Origin: an uncultured Gammaproteobacteria bacterium
Lineage (GTDB): Bacteria > Patescibacteriota > Patescibacteriia > Magasanikbacterales > GWA2-37-8
DNA length: 35,246 nucleotides
Direction of reading: 5' to 3'
NCBI GenBank assembly: GCA_964477455.1
Contig: CAYZHG010000106.1
Coordinates: forward strand, 1-35,246
Below are positions 2,821-33,157 of the stretch, piece after piece. Numbering within the stretch: the stretch's first letter is position 1; each line of letters opens with the position of its first letter. The notes beneath the pieces were generated by a model. That model was not told the DNA's origin and did no database searches. It worked only from the letters and a program-made list of their open reading frames with translations. Position numbers and translations under genes: made by a program.

Positions 2821-2904
2821 TGCCGCGGGAGAGAATCGAACTCTCATGATGTTGCCATCGCGGGATTTTGAGTCCCGTTCGTCTACCAATTCCGACACCG
2901 CGGC
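2821..2904 (-). tRNA. tRNA-Leu (anticodon CAA), class II with long variable arm, CCA not encoded
   Basis: Reverse complement: GCCGCGG TG TCGGAATTGGTAGACGA A CGGGA CTCAAAA TCCCG CGATGGCAACATCATG AGAGAG TTCGATT CTCTC CCGCGGC A. All four stems pair. The variable arm is GATG-GCAA-CATC. Confidence 0.9.
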
Positions 2905-3763: not shown

Positions 3764-4618
3764 ATGTCTTTAGGTCGCGGTTTAGGCGCTTTGATTACGC
3801 CAACAAATAAAGTGGTCAACCAATCTTCTCATGCTTCTGAAGTAGAAGGAAAAATTTGGTTTATTCCAGTTACTAAAATCACTCCAGATCCAAATCAACC
3901 CCGCAAACATTTTAAACCAGAAGAGTTGGATCAATTGGCCGCCTCAATAAAAGAACATGGTGTGCTACAACCTTTGCTGGTAGTTGAAAAAACTGATGGT
4001 GGTTATGAATTGGTTGCCGGCGAGCGTCGTTGGCGTGCTTCGCAGTTGGCCGGTTTAACAACTGTGCCGGTGCTTATCAAACAGTGGGCGAACCAAGAAA
4101 AATTAGAAGTATCTTTGATTGAAAATATTCAACGTGAAAATTTAAATCCACTCGAAGAAGCATTTGCATACAAAAGATTAATTGAAGAATTTAATCTTAC
4201 TCAACAACAAGTAGCCGATCGAGTAAACAAGAGTCGTCCAGCGATTGCTAACGCGGTACGTTTGTTGGATTTGCCAGCTCCAGTACAAGCGGCATTAGTG
4301 GAAGGAAAAATAAATTCTGGTCAGGCACGCGCTCTACTTTCACTGGCTTCGTCGCAAGAACAACTAAATATGTTGTCTTCGATGTTGGGAGAAAAAATAA
4401 CAGTTCGTGATCTTGAGCGTGAAGCAAATAAACAAAAAGTTTTGAGTAATCGTCCGATTCGAAAAGATCCAAATATTCTTTATTTAGAAGATAAATTGAG
4501 AGCGGAGCTTGGTACGAAGGTGAATATTTCTTCAAAAGGGGTACGGGGGACGATTGCGATTGATTATTATTCGGATGAAGATTTGAAACGGCTGGTGATA
4601 AAATTATTGGGGGAATAA
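3764..4618 (+). CDS. parB: chromosome partitioning protein ParB/Spo0J
   Basis: 284 aa. ParB box GERRWRA, the IENIQRENLNPLEEA motif and an HTH (LTQQQVADRVNKSRPAIANAVRLL). Lies directly after parA. Confidence 0.92.
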   Translation: MSLGRGLGALITPTNKVVNQSSHASEVEGKIWFIPVTKITPDPNQPRKHFKPEELDQLAASIKEHGVLQPLLVVEKTDGGYELVAGERRWRASQLAGLTTVPVLIKQWANQEKLEVSLIENIQRENLNPLEEAFAYKRLIEEFNLTQQQVADRVNKSRPAIANAVRLLDLPAPVQAALVEGKINSGQARALLSLASSQEQLNMLSSMLGEKITVRDLEREANKQKVLSNRPIRKDPNILYLEDKLRAELGTKVNISSKGVRGTIAIDYYSDEDLKRLVIKLLGE

Positions 4619-4634: not shown

Positions 4635-4727
4635 AAAAACAGACACTTACATTTCGCTTTTTTCAGCCGCGAGGCTGAAAGGATGAGCCTCGGCTCATAA
4701 CCCGCTCAATTGTAAGTGTCTGTTTTT
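4635..4727. repeat. copy A of a conserved two-hairpin core enclosed by a 17-bp terminator-like outer stem
   Basis: The outer stem 4635-4651/4711-4727 is perfect, preceded by an A-run and followed by a T-run. The interior 4652-4710 is the reverse complement of 28840-28894, near-identical in blocks. Confidence 0.65.
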
Positions 4728-4742
4728 TTTGTTATCCTAAAA

Positions 4743-5810
4743 TCAAGTTGTGAGGTGCCAATTTGGGTCGGCTTTGATGTCCTGCCAATTGGTAAAGTTA
4801 TTTTTTTGAGCTTGATAATATCCAGCGACTGCGATCATGGCGGCGTTGTCCATGCAGTTTTTTAATTCTGGGTAGACAAATTTTGTTTCTGGGTATTCTT
4901 TGGTAATTATTTTTGTGAGTGTTTCGCGTAGTTTTTTGTTGGCACTTACTCCACCAGCGAGAATCAGTGTTTTTGGGTTTGTTTCTTTGACGGCACGAAT
5001 AGTTTTATAAACTAATACATCGATAATTGCTTGTTCAAATGATGCACAAAAGTCTTCTCGTGTTGGCGAGTTGGGTGTTTGGCCATAAACACCTGTGGGT
5101 AATTCATATGGCATTATTTTGTCGGCGGATAATTTGTTGGCTTGTAACCAATAAAGTGCGGAGGTTTTTAATCCCGAAAAAGAAAAATCCAAATTGTTAT
5201 CTTTCATCATTGGTCTAGGAAAAATTATTGCATCAGTTTTTCCAGTTTCGGCCAATTTAGAAATTTGTGGACCACCTGGATATGGTAAATCCAAAAGTTT
5301 TGCAACTTTATCAAAACATTCTCCAGCGGCATCGTCTTTTGTGTGGCCTAGTAATTTATATTCACTTGGATTATTTATTTGTGTGATTTCAGTATGGCCA
5401 CCGCTGACTACTAATGCAATTGCTGGATATTCAATTTTTTGATTAGGCGTTAGCTCGACCGAATATATATGTCCCTCCAAATGGTTAACGGCGACCAATG
5501 GAATATTCCAAGCTAAAGATAATGCTCGAGCCGCTTCTGTACCAACTATTAATCCAGTAATAAGACCTGGGCCGGCGGTTACGGCAATCACCTCTGGTTT
5601 TGGTTGGTCTTTGAGAATTTCTTCGATAAGTGGCACAATTTTTTCAGCGTGTAATCGTCCGGCAATTTCTGGAACTACTCCACCATATTTTTTATGAATT
5701 TCAATTTGAGAAGCGGTTTTTTCTGAAATTACAAAACAACCATTTTCAGAACAGTCTAACAGAGCAACAGATGTGTCGTCACAAGATGATTCAATACCTA
5801 ATATAATCAT
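4743..5810 (-). CDS. tsaD: tRNA N6-adenosine threonylcarbamoyltransferase TsaD (Kae1/Gcp family)
   Basis: 355 aa. Contains MIILGIESSCDDTSVALL, NHLEGHIY, VSGGHTE and AGGVSANKKLR. Confidence 0.92.
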   Translation of the reverse strand: MIILGIESSCDDTSVALLDCSENGCFVISEKTASQIEIHKKYGGVVPEIAGRLHAEKIVPLIEEILKDQPKPEVIAVTAGPGLITGLIVGTEAARALSLAWNIPLVAVNHLEGHIYSVELTPNQKIEYPAIALVVSGGHTEITQINNPSEYKLLGHTKDDAAGECFDKVAKLLDLPYPGGPQISKLAETGKTDAIIFPRPMMKDNNLDFSFSGLKTSALYWLQANKLSADKIMPYELPTGVYGQTPNSPTREDFCASFEQAIIDVLVYKTIRAVKETNPKTLILAGGVSANKKLRETLTKIITKEYPETKFVYPELKNCMDNAAMIAVAGYYQAQKNNFTNWQDIKADPNWHLTT

Positions 5811-5908: not shown

Positions 5909-5983
5909 GGCCTCATCGTCTAATGGTTAGGACATTGCCCTTTCACGGCGAAAATACGGGTTCGATCCCCGTTGGGGCTACCA
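5909..5983 (+). tRNA. tRNA-Glu (anticodon UUC), CCA encoded
   Basis: GGCCTCA TC GTC TAATGGTTAG GAC A TTGCC CTTTCAC GGCGA AAAT ACGGG TTCGATC CCCGT TGGGGCT A CCA. It has the same layout as E. coli tRNA-Glu, including the 3-bp D stem. The acceptor stem has two G-U pairs, one of them at 1-72. Confidence 0.9.
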
Positions 5984-28173: not shown

Positions 28174-28261
28174 TAGGTTTGTTAACATTTTATTATTTAC
28201 AAAATTGATTAAATTCTATATAATACTGACTTAGTATAATTTATTTAAATATTTGAACACT

Positions 28262-28801
28262 ATGTGTCATGAAAATGGTGGAACTATGCACTCAATGCAT
28301 GGAAAAATGAGAGATTTTGGCTTGTTGGCTTTGCGTTTAGCAATCGCTTTTGTCTTTATTTACAATGGCTATGGTAAAATTTTCACTAACCATGCAATGG
28401 CTAGTGGTATGTTTGGAAAATTAATTGGACCAGAATCAGCTGGATCTTTCTGGGCATACTTTGTTGGTAGTGCAGAATTTTTTGGTGGCTTAATGGTATT
28501 GTTAGGTGTATTTGCCACTTATGCCGCTGCTTGGTTGTCTGTGATCATGGTAGTAGCTATTTTCACTGCTCATTGGGGTGGTCCGATAAATGGTTATTTC
28601 TTGGTTGTATCATTATTAGGAGGCTGTTTGGCTTTATTGGGAAATGGCGCTGGCCGTTTTCGTTTGGTCAAAAAAGAATGTTGCTGTCCTGAATGTAAGG
28701 CAATGTGTTCTGATAAACATGAGGATGCAAAAGTAGTTGGCAAAGGTGATGATGCTGACGATTGTTGTAGTGGTGGTGGTTGTTGCGGAGACAAAAAATA
28801 A
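28262..28801 (+). CDS. DoxX family membrane protein with Cys/His/Met-rich termini
   Basis: The DoxX core is LLALRLAIAFVFIYNGYGK followed by 4 TM helices. The N-terminus is MCHENGGTMHSMHGKM. The C-terminal tail is KKECCCPECKAMCSD...DDCCSGGGCCGDKK. The track start at 28253 is a TTG. Confidence 0.75.
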   Translation: MCHENGGTMHSMHGKMRDFGLLALRLAIAFVFIYNGYGKIFTNHAMASGMFGKLIGPESAGSFWAYFVGSAEFFGGLMVLLGVFATYAAAWLSVIMVVAIFTAHWGGPINGYFLVVSLLGGCLALLGNGAGRFRLVKKECCCPECKAMCSDKHEDAKVVGKGDDADDCCSGGGCCGDKK

Positions 28802-28810
28802 TTTTCAAAC

Positions 28811-28923
28811 AAAATAAAACACCGGATATTGTTACTTTAAAGCGGGTTATGAAGCCGAGGCTTCATCCCTGAGTCCTCGCGGACGAGGAAAGCGTAAAGT
28901 AATAATATCCGGTGTTTTATTTT
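28811..28923. repeat. copy B of the conserved two-hairpin core enclosed by a 24-29-bp terminator-like outer stem
   Basis: The outer stem 28816-28839/28895-28918 is perfect apart from one G-U pair and can extend to 28811/28923. The interior 28840-28894 matches the reverse complement of 4652-4710. Confidence 0.65.
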
Positions 28924-30689
28924 TCCAAATTTTGGATGTCTTCTTGAATTTTTAACCATTCGTCTTCTTTGGCTTTTGTTTCTTTGTCGAGGTCACCAAG
29001 GTGTCGATAATCATCTAGTGAAAATGCTTGTGGGTCTTTGGCTTGTTTGCGCATAAGGCGCATTTTTTCTTTTTCAAGGTCAAAGATATCATCTTCGATT
29101 TTTTTTAATTTCTTTTTTTCAGTTTTGATGTCTTCATAACGCTGTTTTTTTTCGTCGTCCGTTTTGGCTGGTTTTATTTTTATGATTTCTTCGGTTTGTT
29201 GAGGTCCGATGGATTGTTCTAAATTATAGACGTATTCTTCGTACGTTCCAGGGTAGCGACGAACTTCGCCATTTTTCACTTCAACGATCATCGTGGCGAT
29301 AGAGTTTACAAAGGTGCGGTTATGACTAATGAAAAGTACTGTTCCGTTGAATTCTTCTAATGCTAAGCCCAGCGCTTCCACGGTTTCAAAATCCAAATGG
29401 TTGGTCGGTTCGTCCAGTAACAGAACCTTACTTTTGGAAAGCAAAATACTAGCAAGACACAAGCGCGCTTTTTCTCCACCACTTAACACCGAAATATCTT
29501 TTTCCAGATCTCCATCTTTGAATAAAAAATTTCCCGCCATTTTTAAAATCTCCTCATCATTGATATCGCTTGGTGCGTTGGTGCGCAAATGTGACCAGAC
29601 TTTTTGTTCTGGATCCAAAGCGTTTGGTACATGTTGAGCGTAATAGGCAAAGGTGCTATCTACCGCCCATTTGAATTTACCACCAATAGGTGAAAGTTCA
29701 TTGGCCAAAGTTTTCAGAAATGTGGTTTTGCCTTGACCGTTATCACCAAGAATAGCGACGTGTTCACCACGATCAATATCAAGGGTAATGTTTTCGGCAA
29801 TCGTTTTGTTTGGATAACCAATTGCTAATTTTTCACAACGGAATAAAAGACCTTTTTTGGTTTCTATGTTTGGTATTTTAATACGTACGGTTGTGAGTGG
29901 ACTTTGAATGTCTAATTTTTGAAGTTTTTCAATAGCCTTTAATTTACTCTGAGCTTGTGAAGCCTTGCTGGCTTTGTAGCGAAATTTATCAACAAAATCT
30001 TGCAGATGTCTTTGTTCGCGTTCAATTTTTTTATTATATAATTTGGCAAAAGCGAGGCGCTCTTCTTTGTAGGCCAAATATTCATCTATTGGTCGAGGAA
30101 ATAATGTCAGATTACCATGTTCAATTTCCAGCGTTTGTTCGCAGGTGCGTTTTAAGAATTCGCGATCATGTGAAATAATTAAAAATGATTCACTGTAGTC
30201 GCGTAAAAATTTTTCTAATAAAAGCTGAGTATGAACATCGAGATAATTAGTAGGTTCATCAAGTAAAAAAAGATTTGGCTCTTTGAGCAACATCGATGAC
30301 AGTCGAATTCGCATTTGATAACCACCCGAAAGTGTAGAAAGTTTCGTAGTTAATAACTCATTTTTAATTTCAAATTTTCCTGCCACTTTGGAACACTGCC
30401 AAGTTTCTTTTTGTGTAGTGCGTTCCAAAAATTCCAGCACCGTTTCGTCTGGATCAATCAGTTCATGTTGTTCTAAATATCCCAAGCGCGTAATTGGTTG
30501 TATCGCGATGATCCCAGTATCTTGAGTTTCTTGACCAACGATCATTCTAAAAAGCGTGGACTTGCCAGCACCATTGCGACCAATCACACCAATCTTTTGT
30601 TTCGTGTGAATTGCCAAATCAGCATCTTTAAAAAGTGCTTGTTGATGATATGATTTATTTAATTTTTCTATCGTAAGTAGAGTGGCCAT
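28917..30689 (-). CDS. ABC-F family ATPase (two ABC cassettes, no TM domain; translation-factor type)
   Basis: 590 aa. Walker A GRNGAGKST and GDNGQGKTT, signatures LSGGYQMR and LSGGEKAR, and a Lys/Glu-rich coiled-coil C-terminus. Confidence 0.9.
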   Translation of the reverse strand: MATLLTIEKLNKSYHQQALFKDADLAIHTKQKIGVIGRNGAGKSTLFRMIVGQETQDTGIIAIQPITRLGYLEQHELIDPDETVLEFLERTTQKETWQCSKVAGKFEIKNELLTTKLSTLSGGYQMRIRLSSMLLKEPNLFLLDEPTNYLDVHTQLLLEKFLRDYSESFLIISHDREFLKRTCEQTLEIEHGNLTLFPRPIDEYLAYKEERLAFAKLYNKKIEREQRHLQDFVDKFRYKASKASQAQSKLKAIEKLQKLDIQSPLTTVRIKIPNIETKKGLLFRCEKLAIGYPNKTIAENITLDIDRGEHVAILGDNGQGKTTFLKTLANELSPIGGKFKWAVDSTFAYYAQHVPNALDPEQKVWSHLRTNAPSDINDEEILKMAGNFLFKDGDLEKDISVLSGGEKARLCLASILLSKSKVLLLDEPTNHLDFETVEALGLALEEFNGTVLFISHNRTFVNSIATMIVEVKNGEVRRYPGTYEEYVYNLEQSIGPQQTEEIIKIKPAKTDDEKKQRYEDIKTEKKKLKKIEDDIFDLEKEKMRLMRKQAKDPQAFSLDDYRHLGDLDKETKAKEDEWLKIQEDIQNLEK

Positions 30690-33080: not shown

Positions 33081-33157
33081 GTCAGGGTAGCTCAGTTGGT
33101 TAGAGCACGGCATTCATAACGCCGAGGTCGGGAGTTCAACCCTCCCTCCTGACACCA
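33081..33157 (+). tRNA. tRNA with CAU anticodon (elongator Met type; lysidine-modified Ile2 cannot be excluded), CCA encoded
   Basis: GTCAGGG TA GCTC AGTTGGTTA GAGC A CGGCA TTCATAA CGCCG AGGTC GGGAG TTCAACC CTCCC TCCTGAC A CCA. G1-C72 is paired, so this is not an initiator. Confidence 0.9.

Follow-up and report, generated by a model that had tools for sequence, protein, structure and literature searches.

A multicopy hairpin repeat with a variable stem and a conserved branched tip occupies terminator positions in Magasanikbacteria

The window analyzed here is the whole stretch of 35,246 nucleotides given as positions 1 to 35,246 of contig CAYZHG010000106.1 (assembly GCA_964477455.1). In it, two convergent genes, for a DoxX-family protein and an ABC-F ATPase, leave between them a 115-nt spacer that is filled by one long hairpin, referred to here as copy B; a second hairpin of the same kind, copy A, lies elsewhere in the window. 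Both belong to a real, lineage-specific, multicopy family, in which each copy has its own outer stem and the branched tip, about 53 nt long, is conserved. The genes flanking copy B, its parts, and copy A are as follows.

28253-28801, plus strand: DoxX-family gene (Pfam PF07681, E = 1.8e-17).
28811-28923, plus strand: copy B, the complete hairpin element (outer stem and three-way-junction tip), defined by the fold and by model R1.
28811-28839, plus strand: 5' arm of the outer stem of copy B, with the A-rich tract AAAATAAAA, the GC clamp CACCGG, and the AT-rich inner arm ATATTGTTACTTTA.
28840-28841, plus strand: AA dinucleotide before the core, at a position that is GA in 67 of 78 copies.
28842-28848, plus strand: junction strand GCGGGUU; its GC pairs with the GC of AAAGCG, its GG with the CC at 28867-28868, and its UU is a bulge.
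28849-28866, plus strand: hairpin 1 (AUGAAGCC-GA-GGCUUCAU), variable in sequence with pairing kept.
28867-28868, plus strand: junction strand CC, paired with G28845-G28846 and invariant family-wide.
28869-28888, plus strand: hairpin 2 (CUGAGUCC-UCGC-GGACGAGG), of the tandem G·A/A·G subtype.
28889-28894, plus strand: junction strand AAAGCG, an AAA linker followed by GC paired with G28842-C28843.
28895-28923, plus strand: 3' arm of the outer stem, with a T-rich tract at its end and the ABC-F stop codon (28917-28919, minus strand) inside it.
28917-30689, minus strand: ABC-F ATPase gene, with homologues at 95-54% identity that carry ABC_tran and ABC_tran_Xtn domains.
4635-4727, minus strand: copy A, a complete element with its core at 4655-4705 (model R1, 85.3 bits; fold -44.8 kcal/mol, z = -6.0).

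The outer stem of copy B (28811-28839 with 28895-28923) consists of 29 consecutive pairs, 28 of them Watson-Crick and one G-U (28831:28903), and encloses a 53-nt three-way-junction core (28842-28894). An initial annotation of this DNA had proposed 24 pairs with one G-U (28816-28839/28895-28918), extendable to 29, between a doxX-like gene ending at 28801 and a convergent ABC-F gene whose stop codon lies in the stem; the proposed pairs fall inside the stem found here, and gene coordinates and Pfam agree with the rest. The minimum-energy fold of 28805-28930 is Y-shaped, a long stem bearing two short hairpins on a three-way junction. As RNA, the plus strand folds at -60.1 kcal/mol (z = -10.7) and the minus strand at -56.1 kcal/mol (z = -9.2); with DNA parameters the plus strand adopts the same structure at -38.5 kcal/mol (z = -10.4). 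At the base of the core, A28840 can pair with T28895, and A28841 stands opposite G28894. In most copies, a GA before the core and a GA after it form tandem G·A/A·G pairs at this place. The layout of the 5' arm of copy B fits the positional profile of the family.

Copy A also lies between convergent genes, for ParB (3764-4618, plus strand) and TsaD (4743-5810, minus strand), families assigned with Pfam. The two copies differ exactly as first described. Hairpin 1 is AUGAGCC/GGCUCAU in copy A and AUGAAGCC/GGCUUCAU in copy B, a gain of one A-U pair, and in hairpin 2 the two pairs beside CC-UCGC-GG are A-U and G-C in copy A and G-C and U-A in copy B. Hairpin 2 of copy A belongs to the all-Watson-Crick subtype, and that of copy B to the one with tandem G·A/A·G pairs. 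The strands GCGGGUU, CC, and AAAGCG are identical in the two, as had been claimed. Synteny at 74-81% DNA identity links the window to a Magasanikbacteria contig (L045), which has an orthologue of copy A that bears compensatory changes of its own.

Is this likeness more than coincidence? The family was collected in two ways. One genome per bacterial species was searched with a skeleton pattern of 21 bases, which occurs 0.00 times in shuffles of the window; this gave at least 113 loci. Metagenomes were searched with a pattern in which only the strands flanking the junction were fixed and the interior was free, which gave at least 120 further loci. A covariance model, model R1, was built from 67 copies. 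In the window, it finds copies A and B only (copy B at 73.7 bits, E = 4.7e-19). Among the listed genome loci, 69 hold true copies, with at least 78 copies matched by the model in at least 18 Magasanikbacteria assemblies; these score 53-98 bits, apart from one truncated match at 48. The other 44 loci were rejected as members, being high-GC chance matches that score at most 26 bits with the family model. The metagenomes add at least 111 model matches among the loci listed. About 10 copies were found independently of the first pattern, and 8 of these deviate from it at one to three positions, several of the changes being compensatory.

A covariance-model search of this kind had been proposed from the start, and it has brought in many further copies. 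One could suppose that copy B is an ordinary terminator whose loop became elaborate by chance, its likeness to copy A being coincidental, and its position and flanking A- and T-tracts would fit that view. Among the matches listed, however, the same 53-nt tip recurs, with the same architecture, in about 190 copies beyond A and B; none is expected in shuffles, and the gap between 53-98 bits and the 26 bits or less of chance pattern matches is wide. We regard the idea as refuted, its probability being close to nil.

All true hosts among the matches listed are Candidatus Magasanikbacteria or Patescibacteria, plus six assemblies labeled "uncultured Gammaproteobacteria" (CAZHYJ01, CAZXEV01, CAYXJO01, CAZXFG01, CAZBWU01, and CAYHBZ01; GC 36-46%). 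We take these six to be mislabeled relatives of Magasanikbacteria, because their syntenic genes share 60-78% protein identity with Magasanikbacteria loci (the loci concerned are L003, L014, L035, L037, L042, L046, L052, L054, L062, L063, L067, L068, L072, L080, L081, L087, L099, L106, and L110). Spread across phyla was rejected on the same ground. A phage origin was rejected as well, a scan of viral contigs having given two high-GC chance matches only. Sampled contigs carry about one copy per 10-60 kb, from which we would expect tens of copies in a genome of about 1 Mb. Degenerate copies are rare, with none among the genome loci and three among the nine secondary copies in the metagenome loci. 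At L042:4416-4423 (minus strand), an orphan CCGAGCGGGTTAAAAAA stands about 50 nt upstream of a full element, perhaps left over from a second copy that was deleted. Several short metagenome contigs or loci (L119, L120, L195, L131, and L030) end in or at long hairpins, and such elements may cause breaks in assemblies.

Searches of Rfam and of the literature gave no earlier account. A scan of the window against Rfam 15 at the gathering threshold returned three tRNAs only, and permissive scans of copies A and B returned generic hairpins below threshold, the best being MIR475 at 38 bits (threshold 70). In the literature on repeats and RNA motifs of Magasanikbacteria and Patescibacteria, we found no earlier description of the family.

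A copy consists of a single hairpin, about 110-130 nt long, with an outer stem of 20-30 bp whose sequence is specific to that copy. Read 5' to 3' on the motif strand, the consensus starts with an A-rich tract (about -34 to -23), a GC-rich clamp (-22 to -16), and an AT-rich inner arm (-15 to -6), often ATTAC(C/T), followed by TTTGA. The conserved tip of about 53 nt comes next, in which TTTGA leads into GCGGGUU, hairpin 1, CC, hairpin 2, and AAAGCG, with AAAA behind it; the complementary arm and a T-rich tract complete the element. Hairpin 1 has 7-9 bp and a small variable loop, and hairpin 2 has 8-9 bp and a loop that is usually UCGC. Tandem G·A/A·G pairs occur at three sites: at the top of the long stem (TGA-GC ... 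GC-GAA; 67 of 78 copies, with Watson-Crick pairs instead in a few), in one of the two hairpin 2 subtypes (YGAG/CGAG), and in some versions of hairpin 1. The two hairpin 2 subtypes are found together in single genomes.

The initial annotation had argued from two copies that selection acts on structure rather than sequence, and the larger sample bears this out. Two alignments were used: a MAFFT alignment of the genome copies (A1), fitted to no structure, and a model alignment of the metagenome copies (A3), whose interior was sampled freely but fitted to the model. Paired cells make up 91.0% of A1 and 93.5% of A3, and in each alignment 21 of 28 pairs show double changes. The covariation score is 0.540 in A1, compared to 0.171 after shuffling and at most 0.19 with slid partners, and 0.603 in A3, compared to 0.161 and at most 0.13; in neither case did any of 500 shuffles reach the observed value. 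With both controls so far below the observed scores in two independent samples, all three helices are selected for pairing, not for sequence. The five outer pairs of hairpin 1 have 3-26 double changes each in A1 and 15-46 in A3, and the covarying pairs of hairpin 2 alternate between U-A and C-G, or among C-G, G-C, A-U, and U-A.

The junction itself hardly changes. Its pairs G-C, C-G, G-C, and G-C are invariant in the family, the strand CC, which the search did not impose, is present in 103 of 103 metagenome copies (A3), and AAAGCG is conserved apart from the rare variants AGAGCG and, with a compensating change across from it, AAAGCA. The statement that CC-UCGC-GG is invariant, correct for copies A and B, did not survive the wider sample: it is the majority state only. 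Of 100 distinct copies sampled with the interior left free, 60 have CC-UCGC-GG, 27 have UCGC with other closing pairs, and 13 have other loops, UUGGC, CAA, or similar. The pairs closing a UCGC loop are C-G in 86-90 copies, with compensatory U-A (4-10) and G-C (4). Several familiar motifs were tried and rejected. A pseudoknot between GCGGG and the CUCGC loop, two sides that hardly vary, is disfavored by the loop variants UUGGC and CAA, which occur with no change in GCGGG. The tandem G·A sites each lie two pairs from the junction and have no adjacent 3-nt bulge on inspection of A1/A2, unlike a kink-turn. A hammerhead ribozyme, with its core of CUGANGA ... GAAA ... UH, finds no Rfam match, and the all-Watson-Crick subtype of hairpin 2 lacks CUGA. 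Readings of the tip as tRNA-like, 5S-like, or guanidine-II-like were dismissed on inspection.

The noncanonical pairs reveal which strand folds. In the tip and the inner 15 nt of the stem, the motif strand has 56 G·T mismatches compared to 4 A·C, and 74 G·A compared to no C·T, so that the tip folds on one specific strand. The distal stem is neutral in this respect: of about 2,270 pairs, 121 are G·U on the motif strand, compared to 100 on its complement. Since the tip and inner arm are strand-specific and the distal stem is neutral and near-perfect, we describe the element as two-layered.

Which way the tip points is uncoupled from flanking gene direction. Where the two neighbors are codirectional, it is sense in 8 cases and antisense in 18; cruder gene calling gave 15 and 22. 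At copy B itself, a DoxX-family transcript would enter the element in the tip's sense orientation and an ABC-F transcript in its antisense orientation. These counts, together with flips at orthologous sites, leave it unestablished that the tip belongs to a particular mRNA. The same is true of the initial reading of the folded molecule as RNA, given that DNA parameters yield the same structure.

These observations bear on the view that the element is a cis-acting structured RNA at mRNA 3' ends, in which the three-way junction, together with the tandem G·A pairs, attracts a specific RNA-binding protein or places RNase III on the stem of more than 20 bp. Processing and stability of the mRNA 3' end would be set in this way, and termination would be secondary. 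Functional RNAs typically show such a pattern of conservation, with junction nucleotides kept and helices covarying. Only one strand carries G·U wobbles and tandem sheared G·A pairs, and the stem is long enough for RNase III. There is also a precedent in the Correia hairpins of Neisseria, which are bound by RNase III and then cleaved or protected (PMC2649163). On the other side, the tip is antisense to the sole adjacent transcript in 18 of 26 codirectional contexts and flips at orthologous sites, no conserved promoter was seen at a fixed distance, and the same structure results when the sequence is folded as DNA. DNA hairpins, too, tolerate G·A and G·T pairs. We consider this view unlikely.

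What, then, does the element do where it lies? Copy B has the sequence of an intrinsic terminator in both directions: its 29-bp stem is followed by UUUUAUUUUU on the plus strand and by UUUUAUUUUG on the minus strand, and the 115-nt DoxX/ABC-F spacer contains no other terminator. Its geometry is unlike that of typical terminators, with their GC-rich stems of 5-12 bp and loops of 3-8 nt, and a simple terminator scanner skips it, because the stem is 29 bp long and the "loop" is a 53-nt three-way junction. The setting between convergent genes, to which attention had been drawn at the outset, is real and is no special feature of copy B; it is the family's typical home. Both the A-tract and the T-tract flank 15 of the 16 copies that lie between convergent genes. 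In the family as a whole, an upstream A-tract is combined with a downstream T-tract in 40 of 75 copies, at least one of the two is present in 60 of 75, and stems start right at stop codons.

More direct is a comparison of the copy-B site across ABC-F orthologues, ranked here by the protein identity of the ABC-F gene.

L119, 95%: the same element, with one A-to-G change.
A relative at 92%: the next gene follows directly after the ABC-F stop codon, leaving no room for the element (from gene calls only).
L114, 90%: a short plain bidirectional terminator.
L120, 87%: a different long hairpin with an unrelated branched tip.
L121, 85%: a short plain bidirectional terminator.
L115, 84%: the element, of the other subtype, in the opposite orientation and with a different stem.
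L116, 82%: a short plain bidirectional terminator.
L122, 82%: a short plain bidirectional terminator.

The plain terminators of L114, L116, L121, and L122 have an A5-stem-T5 form with stems of 5-9 bp, each different; next to these, the stem of copy B is unusually long for a terminator, as had been noted. In these relatives, at 82-90% protein identity, the stems begin GTCCTG, TACCAC, CACCTCG, and TATCCCCCG. A different stem in every relative implies that terminator hairpins turn over very quickly in these genomes, and plain terminators exactly at the copy-B site in four relatives imply that the element substitutes for a terminator. The family thus holds the positions of bidirectional intrinsic terminators at gene ends and carries their sequence hallmarks.

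Two further observations belong with this site and its kind. A copy at L110:3613-3694 lacks A- and T-tracts, and a separate plain terminator (AAAAAGAGCCCGGATGGCTCTTTTT) follows directly, within 40 nt; an element thus need not itself be the terminator. Model R1 misses other long perfect hairpins (L120:3322-3435, L021:4254-4373, and L003:7209-7306), which have 18-23-nt arms and different branched tips of 56-78 nt. The one in L120 lies exactly at the copy-B position and folds at -51.5 kcal/mol (z = -9.4). These hairpins suggest that the lineage has several unrelated families built as a variable stem plus a structured tip.

Comparison of orthologous sites elsewhere shows that copies are gained, lost, inverted, and subtype-swapped over short times, and that some sites are kept across deep divergence. 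Between L107 and L104, whose flanks share 97% protein identity, the outer stem is homologous, and the tip is inverted and of the other subtype. Orientation also differs between L012 and L052 and between the window and L115. Retention in the same orientation was seen in L042/L026/L056 (52-75% protein identity), in L027/L083/L051, and between the window and L045; at retained sites, stems and hairpins have fully diverged yet are still paired. Where the orthologous site is empty, the whole hairpin is absent and the genes abut.

We also weighed a view at the level of DNA: that a folded single strand or cruciform is the recognition site of an enzyme acting on DNA, by which the repeats are moved or maintained. 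This might be a recombinase, a topoisomerase, or an HUH/Y1 transposase like those of REP/RAYT and IS200/IS605, and terminator activity would be tolerated or co-opted. Insertion, absence, and inversion do vary among close relatives, and the insertion polymorphism between related genomes is that of a MITE (a miniature transposable element with inverted repeats). The orientation is independent of transcription, the distal arms are near-perfect and strand-neutral as if both strands had to pair, and the DNA fold of copy B is far more stable than chance (the z of -10.4 given above). The two hairpins and the frequent TTAC of the left arm are compatible with an IS200/IS605-type element; the recurrent TTAC presumably recalls the IS608 target and serves as a lead only. 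Yet no transposase, defined ends, or split or autonomous copy was found, 525 kb holding no meaningful half-sites, and filled and empty orthologous sites differ in the whole spacer, with no target-site duplication. Conserved terminal inverted repeats of the MITE type are lacking, since conservation is limited to TTTGA/AAAA and about 10 nt of degenerate inner arm, and the variable stem without a GTAG motif is not that of a REP. A nonpalindromic center of 53 nt disfavors cruciform extrusion. There is no orientation bias with respect to gene strand, taken as a proxy for replication direction, and the retention of the element at some sites across 52-75% protein identity argues for selection at the level of the host. 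On balance, a DNA-level element seems unlikely to us.

In a third view, the copies are independent small-RNA genes, the tip being a scaffold and the locus-specific stem being processed, for example by RNase III, into guide-like or regulatory duplexes. A unique perfect duplex of 20-30 bp in each copy, under a constant scaffold, is what it would predict, and the sole weak matches in Rfam are to microRNA-precursor hairpin models, which reflect shape alone. Nevertheless, there is no conserved upstream promoter, and in 0.9 Mb of related DNA the arms have no counterparts beyond chance matches of 12-16 nt. Viral contigs lack the pattern except for the two chance matches, and the stems begin at stop codons and carry terminator tracts. 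This leaves the idea very improbable. Copying of the arms from neighboring genes, or a role for them as spacers, was rejected on the same chance-level matches and on empty sites that have no arm sequence. As to whole hairpins being copied and pasted, about 10 nt of distal arm is common to a few nonorthologous copies, for example ACACCGGATA in copy B and at L051:5020, and much of this is A-tract. There is a weak hint of insertion into the loop of a preexisting terminator, in that the CACCGG clamp of the window resembles the CACCTCG stem of L116; against this, the stem of the closer relative L114 is unrelated and plain terminators differ in every relative. Quasi-palindrome correction by template switching is a plausible contributor to the near-perfect stems.

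Taken together, the best explanation in our view, to which we would give a probability of roughly 55%, is an interspersed terminator repeat specific to Magasanikbacteria, of the general kind of REP, SPRITE, and Correia elements, with a variable stem and a conserved, selected branched tip that forms a separate module. We imagine that the long hairpin with its U-tracts would stop RNA polymerase arriving from either side, and that the tip may serve as a separately selected docking platform for a protein or nuclease on a folded single strand, RNA being slightly favored over single-stranded or cruciform DNA. Cleavage of the long stem by RNase III is plausible from its length. Copies might spread and turn over by recombination or gene conversion with one another, or by a transposition step. 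Because the arms beside the tip are inverted repeats, exchange can set the tip in either orientation; exchange via the palindromic inner arms would explain the uncoupled orientation, the flips, and the subtype swaps.

Several points weigh against this explanation. A tip working in RNA would leave unexplained the 18 copies that are antisense between codirectional genes; for one working in DNA, no partner enzyme, defined element end, target duplication, autonomous version, or half-site (in 525 kb) was found. The unique near-perfect stem of 20-30 bp in each copy is not explained either, the arms being unmatched in 0.9 Mb and absent from empty sites. Neither an A- nor a T-tract is present in 15 of 75 copies, and about six copies lie between divergent genes. 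The invariance of the junction is partly by construction, since both search patterns fix some junction nucleotides, and the proposed terminator function is read from position and sequence hallmarks.

A bolder proposal, which we think less likely than not, is that the tip is a new structured nucleic-acid module within bidirectional terminators, an RNA or extruded DNA hairpin that would recruit a dedicated protein or nuclease. This could act, for example, in RNase III-type processing of 3' ends or in mobility specific to hairpin tips, which would make or maintain the unique perfect stems. If so, the unrelated branched tips in L120, L021, and L003 would point to a general, undescribed terminator design in these organisms.

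Bacteria of the candidate phyla radiation have tiny genomes and almost no experimentally characterized noncoding elements. A free stem with a fixed tip is the opposite of every classical bacterial repeat and points to recognition at the tip of a folded hairpin, which known transposases or RNA-binding proteins do not account for. A tip acting in RNA would make a candidate for a new RNA-protein or RNA-nuclease system governing mRNA 3' ends in an uncultured phylum; one acting in DNA would point to a new way to move or maintain palindromes. The covariance model can be used to annotate such elements, to flag mislabeled assemblies, and to explain contig breaks at long hairpins.

Two features of the window stand apart from the repeat. 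The three tRNA genes lie at 2821-2904 (minus strand), 5909-5980 (plus strand), and 33081-33154 (plus strand), the first with a long variable arm. The DoxX-like protein has an unusual cysteine-rich tail (window 28650-28801; …CCPECKAMC…CCSGGGCCGDKK), present in diverged form in orthologues.

Among known repeats, the closest analogue is the pneumococcal SPRITE, which also is multicopy, has an overlong terminator-like stem, and is enriched at 3' ends and between convergent genes; the analogy is functional, by description only. SPRITE repeats occur in tens of interspersed copies with an 18-bp stem, overlong for a terminator, and AAAA/TTTT ends; they lie near gene 3' ends, with strong enrichment between convergent genes, and are proposed to have been co-opted as terminators, with no target duplication or partner transposase identified (PMC3049150). 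Copies of SPRITE share their stem sequence, whereas in the present family the stem differs in every copy and the branched 53-nt tip is conserved; the hosts are Firmicutes in the one case and Patescibacteria in the other. Transcripts of the Correia elements of Neisseria form a hairpin that is bound and cleaved or protected by RNase III, and expression of neighboring genes is altered (PMC2649163). Like the present family, they are multicopy intergenic inverted repeats with a long hairpin and are polymorphic in presence between strains. They differ from it in their terminal inverted repeats of 26 bp, which are conserved, and in having a TA duplication, an IHF site, and ends that generate promoters.

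The REP/BIME/REPIN sequences of proteobacteria, mobilized by RAYT, resemble the family in that they are extragenic palindromes, placed at the ends of operons in either orientation. They stabilize mRNA or serve as terminators, provide protein-binding sites, and are thought to be recognized as folded single strands. REPs, however, are 20-40 nt long with a conserved stem sequence and a 5' GT(A/G)G, the reverse of a variable stem under a conserved tip, and no RAYT was identified for the present family, although no test was aimed at one. The HMP-PP (thiS) riboswitch, with its terminator-embedded aptamer, presumably has a similar layout, a conserved structured module nested in a terminator hairpin. 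It is a single-copy, ligand-responsive 5'-untranslated-region regulator of one class of genes; the repeat described here occurs tens of times, in both orientations, at the 3' ends of genes that are unrelated. The family thus falls outside MITEs, REPs, and Correia elements by their defining features, having no conserved terminal repeats, target duplication, or GTAG and a reversed pattern of conservation, and we therefore file it as an interspersed terminator-like palindromic repeat with an unusual layout.

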